Shown here: positions 25,721 to 63,410 of the stretch, in pieces
Position numbering within the stretch: the stretch's first letter is position 1
Layout of the letters: each line of letters begins with the position of its first letter
Source: Octopus vulgaris
Lineage: Eukaryota
Direction: 5' to 3'
DNA length: 64,000 bases
Assembly (NCBI GenBank): GCA_951406725.2
Contig: OX597817.1
Span: forward strand, 79,732,001-79,796,000
Notes under the pieces: model-generated
The model's input: the letters and a program-made list of their open reading frames with translations, nothing else
The model's database searches: none
Told to the model about the DNA's origin: nothing
Translations under genes and position numbers: made by a program

Positions 25721-26157
25721 GAAATGCAATTTGATAACGTGAAAATAATGAGAATACTGTCTTACCAAAACAGAACCATTGTCCCCAACTTTTCAATGTC
25801 AGCAAGTGAATTATCTGTGATCATACGTATATACATCGATATTGATGGTCTCCTGGTTTTTCCAATTCTTTAAGAGTGTGTGATTCTAAAATGACTTCCG
25901 TCCATTTAGATTATTCATGCTTAAAAGATAATGACCTTTTAACTGAAACTAAAAACAAAACATGAATCACTGATCACCATTCTTGTTTTCTGAGGAAATT
26001 TTTTATTTATTTCTTCGTTGTTTTTTTAATTGTTTTGCCTACAGATTGCTACAGAGGCATATCTTTGGCCATCCCATCTTTCTGCACTTTCTTTCGTCAG
26101 TTACAATACAATATGGACATCATAATCCAATCTGAATACCATTGAGTTTCAAAATCG

Positions 26158-26620
26158 CGTACACCGATGAATTGCGTATATTATGAACACATCGTCTACA
26201 AAGAGGTGTTCTTTGATGATGAAAAACAACAGCGACCAGATATTCAGTTTCAAATTTGCCAAAATGTATTAAGAATGAATAGTTGTTTTATACTTTGGAT
26301 TCTCGCTACTCTGCATGCACCTCACGAATAATTATCTGTTTAGAAGCAAGTTGCATACATCAGCTAGTAATTTATTTACTGCTTTCTATAAACATGGTCT
26401 TATACACTTGTTGTAGTCTTCGCTCCAGTGGGGCACCGTTGGCTGAGGAGACAAACAATAAAGTCGAAACATTGCGGTGTCCCAAAGCCTTCTTACATCG
26501 GGGAATTGCGTGTTATGAAGGCACATCGACTAAAGGGAAGACGCGTTCTCCGATGACAAAGATCAACAGTGATCCGGTATTCACATTTGAATCTGCCAAA
26601 ATATATCAAGGATGAATGCG
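26158..26620 (+). repeat. Direct repeat with ~335-bp period bracketing a hammerhead ribozyme
   Basis: 26158-26280 aligns with 26492-26617: gaattgcgt at 26169 and 26503, cacatcg in both, tgccaaaat...atgaat in both. Confidence 0.75.
26432..26489 (+). ncRNA. Type I hammerhead ribozyme, canonical
   Basis: ggc-accg-ttgg-CTGAGGA-GAC-aaacaataaa-GTC-GAAA-CAT-tgcg-GTG-TC-ccaa-a-gcc. All core nucleotides present, three stems pair, stem I extends past an internal loop, GUC cleavage after 26481. Confidence 0.9.
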
Positions 26621-27418
26621 TTATTATTATCTAATGTGTTTTTATGGAGATTTAACAATCATTTTTTTTTTTGCATGGTAAACGATCCTATGGAAACTTA
26701 ATCTTGTGTCACTTCAATCATTGTCAGATTTTGTTTCACCTTAAAGATGTTGTAACTAAAATATTTTTTTATAATTAGTATTTCTGTAGCAGTAAGATAC
26801 GTTAATTATTGGCTATTTTGTCTGATAATTTTATCGTATTTTATATTATATTTTCATTTTTTCATTCTTTACTGGGTTTGCTCCCTGTAGATGTATTTGT
26901 TAATCACTTGAAGAAGACCTGAATACTAGGTTATGTAATAAATATTTAAGTCAACAGATCGGTATGGACATAGATAAATAACAAAAGTGAGAGAGGGAGA
27001 CAATTGATGCGTGTGAGTAAAAAGACACACAGAAATTAACAAATGCTCATTTTATATTTTTCCCTTATAAATTTGGTCAACTTTTCATTCTTCATTTAAA
27101 TATCATCTTGTATAACAGTTTCTTCCTTTCCGTCTTTGCAGCTATGTGGCTTTGGTAATTGCTTTTAAAGCGAATAAGTGGGTGAATATATCTATCTATG
27201 ACCAAAGTGTAAATGTATAAAAGCTCTGAGAAAAGTTTGTTAACTCCTAATATATACCATGGTTAAAGACGTTCACTTTGCATACATGTGTCTCTATTCT
27301 TGATCGAATTTAAGACACACAGAACTATCTTTTGTACCAGAGCACGGGGCTGGCATATGCCTTTTGACGGAAATTTAGGCAGAGTGAAGCTACAAAGAAT
27401 CTCATTGCATGGGCTGTT

Positions 27419-36572: not shown

Positions 36573-37155
<583 letters not shown>

Positions 37156-38063: not shown

Positions 38064-38092
38064 ATTAAAGAGCTTTTCTTATGAGTACCACC

Positions 38093-38142
<50 letters not shown>

Positions 38143-38165
38143 GGTGGTACTCATAAGAAAAGCTC

Positions 38166-38230: not shown

Positions 38231-39201
38231 GTTGGCAACTAAGTTCCCGCATTTTTTAATTTAACATTTTAAAAGTTTTAATAAAAAATAACAACTAATT
38301 AATCAATAATGTATTCACCCTTGTTGTTTACAACTTCTTCCCAAAGTTCAACAAGATATTCAATACCTCGTTGGTAGACATCACCCGATTTCGACACGAA
38401 AAACTGATCCAACCAAGCTCTCAATTCTGCATCAGTATTGAATGAAACTTCGCGCATAACATTTGAAAGAGATCGTGCCAAATCAGGTGAGTAAGGCGAG
38501 TGTGCCAGCACTTCCCAGTCATGCGTTTAACTGGTTTCCTTGGTTATATTGGCGATATGATGGCGGGCGTGTTCGTGCAGCAGAAGAACTCCATGCTGCC
38601 AATTAGGTCTTTTCTCTTGAACAGCGGTGTCGAGTCGTTCCATTTGTTGACCATAGAGTTCTGCGTTGACCGTTTGGTTCCGTTCAAGCAATTCGTAATT
38701 CCCAGTCCCACCATATGCACAACATCGAGTGAAGATGCTTATCTATAGCAGTTTGTGAGCATTCCATTTTCTCTGCCAGTTCCCTTGTCGTTTGACGAGA
38801 ATTTTTGTGCAAAAGTTGGTTTAATCGCTCTTCGTCGAACTCAACTGGACGACCAGAACGAGGTGCATCTTTCAGGTCAAAATTTCCATTTTTTAACTTG
38901 GTTTACCAATCACGAGCAGTTCTTTCAGCTATGGCACCCTCTCCATACACAGCACAAATGTCGCGAGCAGCTTTTGCGGCCTTAGAACCTTGATTAAAAG
39001 CAAAAAGGAGGTGTCGAAAATGTTCGTTTTTCTTAACTTGACATTCCATTTTAATGATCTGAAGATAAACAAAAATTAACTAAAATAAGTTAGGAAATAA
39101 AAACAAAATAGATTCCAAAATGATTCAAAAACAGAATTCTCGTAAAAAAAAATAGATTCCAAAATTGAAAAAACGGCGGGAACTTAGTTACCAAACCAAT
39201 A
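38225..39201 (-). mobile_element. Mariner transposon fossil with both TIRs
   Basis: TIRs tattgggttggcaactaagttcccgc and gcgggaacttagttaccaaaccaata. Minus strand encodes WEVLAHSPYSPDLA and YQRGIEYLVELWEEVVNNKGEYIID*. Confidence 0.92.
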
Positions 39202-45113: not shown

Positions 45114-45208
45114 TTCACTTCTCTGAAGAGAAGATTACATTGTTTTACATAATTCTATTCCTTTGGAATAATACAAGTGATATCTTCGAAACATATGTCG
45201 GAATGAAA
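45114..45208 (+). ncRNA. Type I hammerhead ribozyme, intact core
   Basis: ttca-c-ttct-CTGAAGA-GAAGAT...ATCTTC-GAAA-CATATG-TC-ggaa-tgaa. Long stem II, palindromic stem III, GUC cleavage after 45199. Confidence 0.82.
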
Positions 45209-62349: not shown

Positions 62350-63410
62350 CAGTGCATGCCAACTTATTGAGTAGGTATTTTATGTTGAGGTATGGTACAA
62401 GTCTCTTCAAATATCAAGATGTTTTCTTAAACATTTTGCAGTGTATAGGATGTGCTTTTCTGAAGGTCAACCATTTCTTTGGTATTGACTCTGCTATCAT
62501 AGGGAATTACAAAATCTATGACTTTGCACTGCTTGTTTATTTTGTCCTCTCTAATCATAACTGGTATTTTCCCATCAGTAGTTTGTGTTATAACGTTGGA
62601 ACATCAAAGATGTCATAGAACACTTCCATGGGTATTTCGTCCTTGTCGCCACTATTATATCCTGCTGCAAGTTGGTGTAGATAAACTATGTAGCGGAGGT
62701 TTAATCAATATATTCTCACGACGTACTTCGCGAGACTACGAAAGCGCTCTCTCGACTACTACCGACCTCTACTCTTTATGGCGAAGTATAATGAGATTTT
62801 GTAATTCTCGTTTTCTGTTGTTTTGAAGCCAGATACTTCATTAATATCCCAGTGCACACTTTTGCCTACACAGGTCTACGCTTTTATTCAATTTGTGCTA
62901 GTATACCACACTCCGTCAAAATATGACTGATACTCTCGTCTCCTTTCCAATAGATTCTACATTTGCTGTCTGACTGAGTGTTGTTCATATTCATCTTTAT
63001 CAGATTTGGTCTAAGGGCTTGCTTCTGGGCGGCTATAATTAAGATTTCTGCTTCTTGCTTCAAGTTCCCGTCCGTTAAGCACGACCAGCAGGCTTCATTT
63101 CTAACCTTTTCGGCTTATTGTATGAACTGGCCATGCAGATCGATTCCTTTGCATTTTGTTCATTCTGTTCTTCTTCCTTTCCTCTAAATTTCTCCTACTG
63201 TTTAAATCACATTTTTGGTATCTCTGGCTGCCGAAACTATTCTTTCTTTACTCTGCACAACATCAGTTTTCTGCCTCGGTATTGCAGTACCAACAGTACT
63301 TTCCGCCTTTAGTAATACTCTACCACCTGCCCTTCGTATAGATAGAGTTGATCACTTTTACTTTTGGGATGGAGTGCGTTGTGAATTATTTGCAGCTTTC
63401 TGGGTATTAC
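62350..63410 (-). mobile_element. RLE-type non-LTR retrotransposon (R4/Dong-like) fragment
   Basis: Minus strand GNLKQEAEILIIAAQKQALR...KCRIYWKGDESISHILTECGILA (decayed CCHC knuckle) and KQCKVIDFVIPYDSRV (RLE motif). Confidence 0.8.

Follow-up and report, generated by a model that had tools for sequence, protein, structure and literature searches.

The structure at 26160-26630 of the window, as we call the whole 64,000-nt stretch of DNA that was analysed, is most probably (about 64%, by our estimate) an old 5'-truncated insertion of a dispersed non-coding retroelement of the animal-retrozyme type, which was likely copied by a Penelope-like reverse transcriptase and is likely inactive now. The insertion is about 470 bp long, or 1.4 of a 335-bp unit. 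It has an A-B-hammerhead-A layout, it belongs to a diverged family and is shared with related organisms, and stem III of its hammerhead is complementary to itself.

A type I hammerhead motif at 26430-26491

The hammerhead motif lies on the forward strand at 26430-26491, with the predicted cleavage after C26481. In the core region (26443-26481, +), CTGAGGA occupies 26443-26449 and GAAA occupies 26466-26469. Stem I consists of 4 bp (26439-26442/26482-26485) and 5 bp (26430-26434/26487-26491) separated by an internal loop of 4 nt on one side and 1 nt on the other. Stem II has 3 bp (26450-26452/26463-26465) with a G-C pair at the base and a 10-nt loop, and stem III, which is self-complementary, pairs 26469-26472 with 26477-26480, the GUC triplet ending at C26481. 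The conserved core (CUGANGA, GAAA, and UH), the three helices, and the open helix I are those of a type I hammerhead ribozyme. When the hammerhead descriptor was applied to the window, four loci were found, against averages of 0.01 with its strict and 0.09 with its loose form over 100 block shuffles. The complete type I hammerhead with an internal loop in stem I that had been described in an earlier, sequence-only reading of this DNA was thus confirmed; both the motif and the direct repeat around it are genuine and far above chance. That reading had also proposed a comparison with the hammerhead models of Rfam, in which the motif went unscored (no hammerhead match at E<=10 in 25900-27000). Over the whole window, Rfam gave mostly microsatellite matches to microRNA models, and none was at the gathering level among the matches listed. 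A degenerate ribozyme pattern had no match among metagenome and viral contigs.

Self-complementarity of stem III

Stem III had been regarded as self-contained and non-palindromic, which is contradicted by its pairing properties and by the letters of its relatives. The segment 26469-26480 did not fold alone, and it formed a duplex with its own second copy in which 12 of 12 positions were paired, including four G-U pairs, at -13.5 kcal/mol. Position 26473 is C in the orthologues of organisms B and C, which turns a G-U pair of the duplex into G-C. Furthermore, 26472 and 26473 are both C in two paralogue contigs, and each of these changes converts G-U to G-C; here, the letters were assigned to the contigs by deduction from summed depths, and the table used omits some differences of those contigs. 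C at both positions, together with the remaining letters of the window, would make 26470-26479 a perfect palindrome. Judging from these letters, stem III is a worn palindrome that is better preserved in the orthologues and paralogues. A dimer-type helix III has been described for metazoan hammerheads and those of Penelope-like elements (PLEs) in PMC4209133, and the stem at 26469-26480 matches that description.

Direct repeat, unit, and ends of the insertion

On the forward strand, repeat copy A1 (26160-26291), recognized by self-alignment and family cover, is the 5'-most piece of the insertion. It is followed by segment B (26292-26429), the unit spacer, whose first and middle parts are common to other loci, then by the hammerhead, and finally by repeat copy A2 (26494-26630), whose right end, about 150 nt past the cut site, is likely the 3' end of the insertion. 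The alignment of 26160-26280 with 26494-26617 gave 73.8% over 126 columns (E 2.9e-14), and the local score of 114 compares with a maximum of 43 across 300 shuffles, in agreement with the direct repeats of about 335-bp period noted before. The offset between A1 and A2 is 334 at the left end and 337 at the right, with weak extension to 26291/26630. The layout A1-B-hammerhead-A2 therefore holds 1.4 units and one ribozyme, and the unit has 334 nt and 37% GC. A degenerate A pattern matched twice in the window and not at all among metagenome contigs; A1 and A2 are the only A copies in the window.

The left end of A1 lies about 12 nt downstream of 26148, the counterpart of the cleavage site. Anchored extension leftward from 26160/26494 gave a score of 0, whereas copies simulated at 28% divergence averaged 62.7 and none of 200 scored so low. 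The decayed hammerhead trace formerly proposed at 26115-26155 was rejected on this ground and because 203 of 500 shuffles aligned equally well; for longer segments, 65, 87, and 217 of 500 shuffles were as good. A five-base likeness to the 3' strand of stem I at 26149-26153, seen by eye and conditional on T26482 being ancestral, was set aside as post hoc and was not counted. T is found at 26482 in four of five paralogues. Since the locus has a single cut site, it can by itself release no 335-nt monomer or circle.

No inverted repeat was found at E<1e-3 in 25900-27000, and neither a target-site duplication nor a 30-40-nt tail was recognisable at the insertion ends. As the sequence-only reading had stated, the locus stands outside (TA)n tracts and fold-backs, unlike the other hammerheads of the window, of which those at 1108 (-) and 36804 (-) are inside fold-backs and that at 45123 (+) adjoins (TA)n. 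A blastn comparison of 25750-27400 with the window gave no match below E 0.08 except its own repeat, and the locus is unrelated to the three other hammerheads.

Coding potential

A 110-codon stop-free frame (26283-26615, +) crosses the hammerhead and was judged to be a chance frame. Further frames have a peptide-like appearance. The 110-codon frame gave 0 of 66 candidate homologues among longer proteins, the antisense 55-codon frame gave 0 of 4, and a 63-residue read-through frame, whose start would lie in the core, as it does in the Anolis element, had no match among 1.84 billion representatives; decayed short peptides are weak queries in such protein searches. Seven local frames searched against Pfam gave one match of E 0.034, below the cut-off. 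No reverse transcriptase (RT) or GIY-YIG domain was found in 7 + 78 + 127 frames of the window, including 85 frames at 14-40 kb, and the 209 longer complex frames, all of which were scanned, gave only a mariner remnant (38.5-39.1 kb) and a weak zf-RVT match (63 kb). The mismatches between A1 and A2 are distributed over the codon positions as 15/11/12, with no third-position bias, and the idea of a duplicated exon was rejected on this ground. Taken together, these searches suggest that the A-B-hammerhead-A insertion is non-coding.

A dispersed family in contigs of public runs

Contigs of public runs were aligned to the stretch at a likeness of at least 80%, namely from X1 (possibly the source sample), X5 (organism B), X7 (organism C), X8 (organism D), and X13 (organism E). 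X1 had 239 contigs on 25760-27380, 203 of them less than 90% alike and some sitting on other small repeats of the stretch; X5 had 255 and X7 had 189. The summed depth in X1, which is not equal to copy number, rose from 57 in the flanks to about 4000 over 26200-26309 and stood at 160-460 across B plus the ribozyme and at 490-825 across A2; it was at the single-copy level in 26090-26144 and again from 26640. Sixty contigs had the same alternative letter at 26262, indicating that dozens of loci carry A. For segment B, paralogue pieces extended over 26221-26341 and 26220-26321, with bin depths of 460 and 274 against 57. No paralogue cover was observed over 26395-26424, and at most one of 11 paralogue contigs matched the final 35 nt of B and the outer part of stem I. 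Multiple genomic copies, as expected of a non-LTR retrozyme, were thus present in the contigs.

Contigs on 26395-26530 numbered 12 in X5, 8 in X7, 9 in X8, and 0 in X13, where gaps in cover are uninformative; this also applies to organism D (X8), in which no orthologous piece was found. Other loci with the ribozyme accounted for 11, 7, and 9 of the contigs from X5, X7, and X8, respectively. Given that this paralogue cover was highest on the core, the ribozyme is borne by the family. The joints within contigs, which give order and not distance and mostly come from one contig per run, were also informative. The joint 26282>26444, detected in X1 and X5 and within one 1457-nt contig, places A upstream of a hammerhead at another locus, and 26506>26215, 26511>26228, and 26478>26205 place A after a hammerhead at other loci; the loose ends that follow 26506 and 26511 look like A. 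At another locus, the joint 26323/4>26215 connects two direct A copies. These joints suggest that the A/hammerhead unit order is a family trait. Opposite-strand joints were observed at two other loci (26161/26564; 26221/26578 or 26253), and they match the inverted 5'-truncated copies described in PMC8557442, a hallmark of Penelope elements.

No contig had two hammerhead matches (0 of 12, 0 of 8, and 0 of 9 in X5, X7, and X8), and no joint linking ribozymes was found among the 29 contigs on the hammerhead, although short-read contigs may break at arrays. Of the two findings that would have spoken for the retrozyme proposal at the outset, other copies were therefore obtained and arrays, in these 29 contigs, were not. 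In one paralogue, the base preceding the core is A and position 26482 is T, a compensatory change that gives an A-U closing pair of stem I compared with G-C here; this was deduced from depth arithmetic and from a loose end found in a single contig of X7 and a single contig of X8. As its G8 is also changed, this paralogue is decayed. The listed paralogue contigs are of single-copy depth, so that no young collapsed subfamily was seen. At 26281-26282, loose ends fell into two paralogue groups (36 and 28 contigs of X1) with different continuations, one of which resembles B; the other becomes T-rich about 12 letters further on and may represent the 3' terminus shared by the family. Run X14 (presumed RNA; 13 contigs) covered paralogue-like A pieces and 25760-25891, not the ribozyme, and is neutral on transcription.

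These data also bear on an unlikely competitor, in which the locus consists of pLTR remnants of an autonomous PLE, either as two adjacent 5'-truncated copies or as a copy whose ORF was lost here only, and never represented a 335-bp non-autonomous family. According to PMC8557442 and PMC4209133, most PLE insertions consist of partial tandems truncated at the 5' end and of single hammerheads, and the Anolis enzyme nicks its own pLTR (PMC11167929); the far more frequent matches to A than to the hammerhead, the inverted arms elsewhere, and the lack of a two-hammerhead contig would fit such an origin. However, the core-start, 110-codon, and antisense frames had no protein match, weak as such queries are if decayed, and no RT/GIY-YIG domain was found in the 85 frames at 14-40 kb. 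The helix sizes are canonical and not PLE-minimal, and the 1457-nt contig holds another locus with A upstream of a hammerhead. Retrozymes have in any case been proposed to originate from the pLTRs of Penelope-like elements (preprint 10.64898/2026.07.22.740005).

It is very unlikely that the second A was made by local tandem duplication (slippage or unequal crossover) after insertion of a single unit. Such an event would be in keeping with the two A copies of the window, and local amplification of PLE ends is discussed in preprint 10.64898/2026.07.22.740005; however, the occurrence of both A>hammerhead and hammerhead>A at other loci is explained by a circularly permuted or multimeric template and not by a one-off duplication.

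Age of the insertion and selection

Organisms B and C have the insertion at the same site. Over 25760-27377, organism B shows 29 differing letters and 17 gaps, and over 26332-26884, organism C shows 12 differing letters and 3 gaps. The divergence between A1 and A2 amounts to 26-31% of sites, compared with about 2% for the orthologues. If A1 and A2 were identical at insertion, each would have drifted by about 0.16-0.20 substitutions per site (Jukes-Cantor). PMC13282606 describes a Penelope/LINE expansion in Octopus vulgaris at a distance of 0.2, and the insertion may have occurred near the time of that expansion. These observations suggest that such hammerhead elements were spreading in the lineage well before the split of organisms A, B, and C.

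Over the 136 bases of 26395-26530, the orthologues differ at one and two sites, as predicted from the flanks (P 0.29 and 0.37, with low power), and the hammerhead core is unchanged in organisms B and C. Under neutral decay, 14-28% of copies would be expected to retain an intact 12-base core at 10-15% divergence, before ascertainment. With a flank-like substitution rate and a core survival of this order, selection on the copy at 26430-26491 is not needed, and the suggestion in the sequence-only reading that selection keeps the core found no support. Maintenance by selection, whether because the ribozyme was exapted within a host transcript or because a coding exon spans it, is accordingly scarcely probable. 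The intact 12-base core, the 110-codon frame open across it, and the lack of core changes in the orthologues of B and C would agree with it; against these stand the rates and the neutral survival given above, a stem III that is short of the G-C pairs of the orthologue and paralogues, a rival hairpin favoured by 15 kcal/mol, and the absence of codon bias or a protein match.

Predicted folding and activity

In this rival hairpin (26430-26483, +), 26430-26439 pairs with 26474-26483, and both stem III and the cut site are predicted to be masked by this pairing. The minimum free energy with the 10-bp hairpin was -21.2 kcal/mol, compared with -6.4 kcal/mol for the hammerhead fold, the ensemble gap was 15-16 kcal/mol in three contexts, and the pair probability was 0.50-0.99 with the upstream strand. 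Without the upstream strand, the hammerhead helices still had near-zero probability in the folding model. The ribozyme at 26430-26491 is thus predicted to be blocked by the hairpin. Since folding energies leave out tertiary contacts and protein help, the inactivity of the ribozyme is a prediction; indeed, the Anolis ribozyme is reported to cleave only with its protein (PMC11167929). The complementarity itself is mildly unusual, as shuffling the upstream strand gave a fold as good as the rival hairpin in 76 of 2000 cases. With this frequency, and with 26430-26434 covered by one of 11 paralogue contigs, the blocking strand was unsupported as a family trait.

The least credible alternative is a working retrozyme dimer giving a 335-nt circular RNA, for which the unit size and GC content fit animal retrozymes and the core is complete, but which lacks an upstream hammerhead where two consecutive ones are required, consists of old, diverged copies, and would give a circle (26147-26481) that folds no better than shuffles (-60.8 against -66.1 +/- 5.6 kcal/mol in 50 shuffles).

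Other features of the window

The window is microsatellite-rich, AT-rich, animal-like DNA. At 988-1195 (core 1108, -), a hammerhead with a 6-nt palindromic stem III and a long stem II is contained in a fold-back of 80% identity flanked by (TA)n tracts and looks like an inverted-arm Penelope-type remnant. The hammerheads at 36804 (-) (36671-37022) and 45123 (+) form one family (77% over 109 nt); the former is in a fold-back of 121 bp and 97.5% identity adjacent to (TA)n and, from this identity, looks young, and the latter is also next to (TA)n. A perfect inverted repeat around (TA)n at 38073-38162 is perhaps a junction of a fold-back element. A broken mariner (Mos1-type) transposase was found at 38530-39079 (-), with HTH_48 (E 1.6e-13) and Transposase_1 (E 5.2e-07) in different frames. 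The zf-RVT match at 62887-63114 (-; E 0.0004, below the cut-off) is 36 kb away from the element and is possibly a LINE remnant. A T-rich tract at 26000-26045 (+), 115 nt upstream of the element and with CAG at 26042-26044, resembles a splice acceptor; position 26045 is G in the orthologues of B and C.

Discussion

The locus has one hammerhead, where an active retrozyme is expected to have two, and has no ORF as an autonomous PLE would; it was therefore filed as a truncated copy of a retrozyme-like family. The proposal of the sequence-only reading, a partial dimer of a hammerhead-bearing retrozyme family, holds as regards the other copies and the non-coding partial tandem, and is unsupported as regards a second hammerhead and, in the 29 contigs on the ribozyme, tandem ribozyme arrays. 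We infer that the template of the truncated insertion was a multimeric transcript. Reverse transcription by the Penelope-like enzyme would have started near 26630, about 150 nt downstream of a hammerhead, would have passed through one uncut hammerhead, and would have ended at 26160, leaving about 12 nt to the preceding unit's cut site. The two A copies would have been identical at insertion and would then have diverged by decay. Because the second A is only 335 bp upstream with no ORF in between, the template would have been a short non-coding unit. The palindromic stem III would have allowed two hammerheads of a multimer to pair and be cut as a dimer, and as such a stem needs a partner, cutting would be inefficient in an isolated copy. 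The agreement of the left end with the cut site, to about 12 nt in a 335-nt unit, was observed once and may be due to chance.

A more specific form of this scheme is decidedly doubtful. In it, the hammerhead of the family would be doubly gated, with a 12-bp palindromic stem III that needs two units and an upstream strand that masks the cut site, and the insertion would be the print of a linear, once-cut multimer that served as the template for the Penelope enzyme, and not of a circle, the template that has been proposed for animal retrozymes.

If correctly assigned, the family adds a host group, the cephalopods, to retrozymes. We found no published cephalopod retrozyme in the literature on hammerheads, Penelope, octopus, and O. 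vulgaris repeats, and the main text of PMC7229834 contains neither "octopus" nor "cephalopod"; in both cases, supplementary species lists might include cephalopods. An old fossil with a single ribozyme is a poor specimen for tests of cleavage or circle formation. Its value is modest and historical, the insertion ends being one data point on the RNA copied by a Penelope enzyme.

Animal non-LTR retrozymes, as described by Cervera and de la Pena (2020, PMC7229834), have units of 170-400 nt with less than 45% GC, are proposed to be mobilised by PLEs, and are known in the mussel, a mollusc. The present locus is like them in its canonical-type type I hammerhead, its 334-nt, 37% GC non-coding unit, its direct-repeat layout, its dispersed copies, and its mollusc-like host. 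Monomers and "solo" derivatives of retrozymes have also been described in the preprint of Li, Clavereau and Pollet (10.64898/2026.07.22.740005), in which two consecutive complete hammerheads are the criterion of activity. The locus is unlike animal retrozymes in having one hammerhead, 1.4 units, no array seen, and old diverged copies. Its stem III is a palindrome forming a 12-bp duplex, whereas theirs is a stem of 1-2 bp with a palindromic tetraloop. Self-pairing is predicted to block the ribozyme here, which PMC7229834 describes for some mussel circles and not for most animal retrozymes. Animal retrozymes are also expected to be expressed as monomer RNAs, both linear and circular.

Compared with the pLTRs of EN+ PLEs (PMC4209133, PMC8557442, PMC11167929), the locus shares the type I hammerhead, the palindromic helix III, the partial tandem, the 5' truncation, the inverted arms at other loci, and a 3' end downstream of the ribozyme. 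PLE insertions are described in PMC8557442 as 5'-truncated partial tandems, often with an inverted arm. In the Anolis element Poseidon, reverse transcription starts 111-118 nt into the ORF, the hammerhead cuts at +26, the insertion ends map to that start, and uncleaved RNA is the main template (PMC11167929); the 3' end of the present insertion likewise lies downstream of its hammerhead. The locus differs from the PLE pLTRs in having no RT/GIY-YIG ORF between or beside the repeats and no recognisable tail or target duplication. Relative to the minimal PLE motif in PMC4209133, it has a short helix II, no extra base after A9, and a two-part helix I, and is thus nearer to the canonical retrozyme type.
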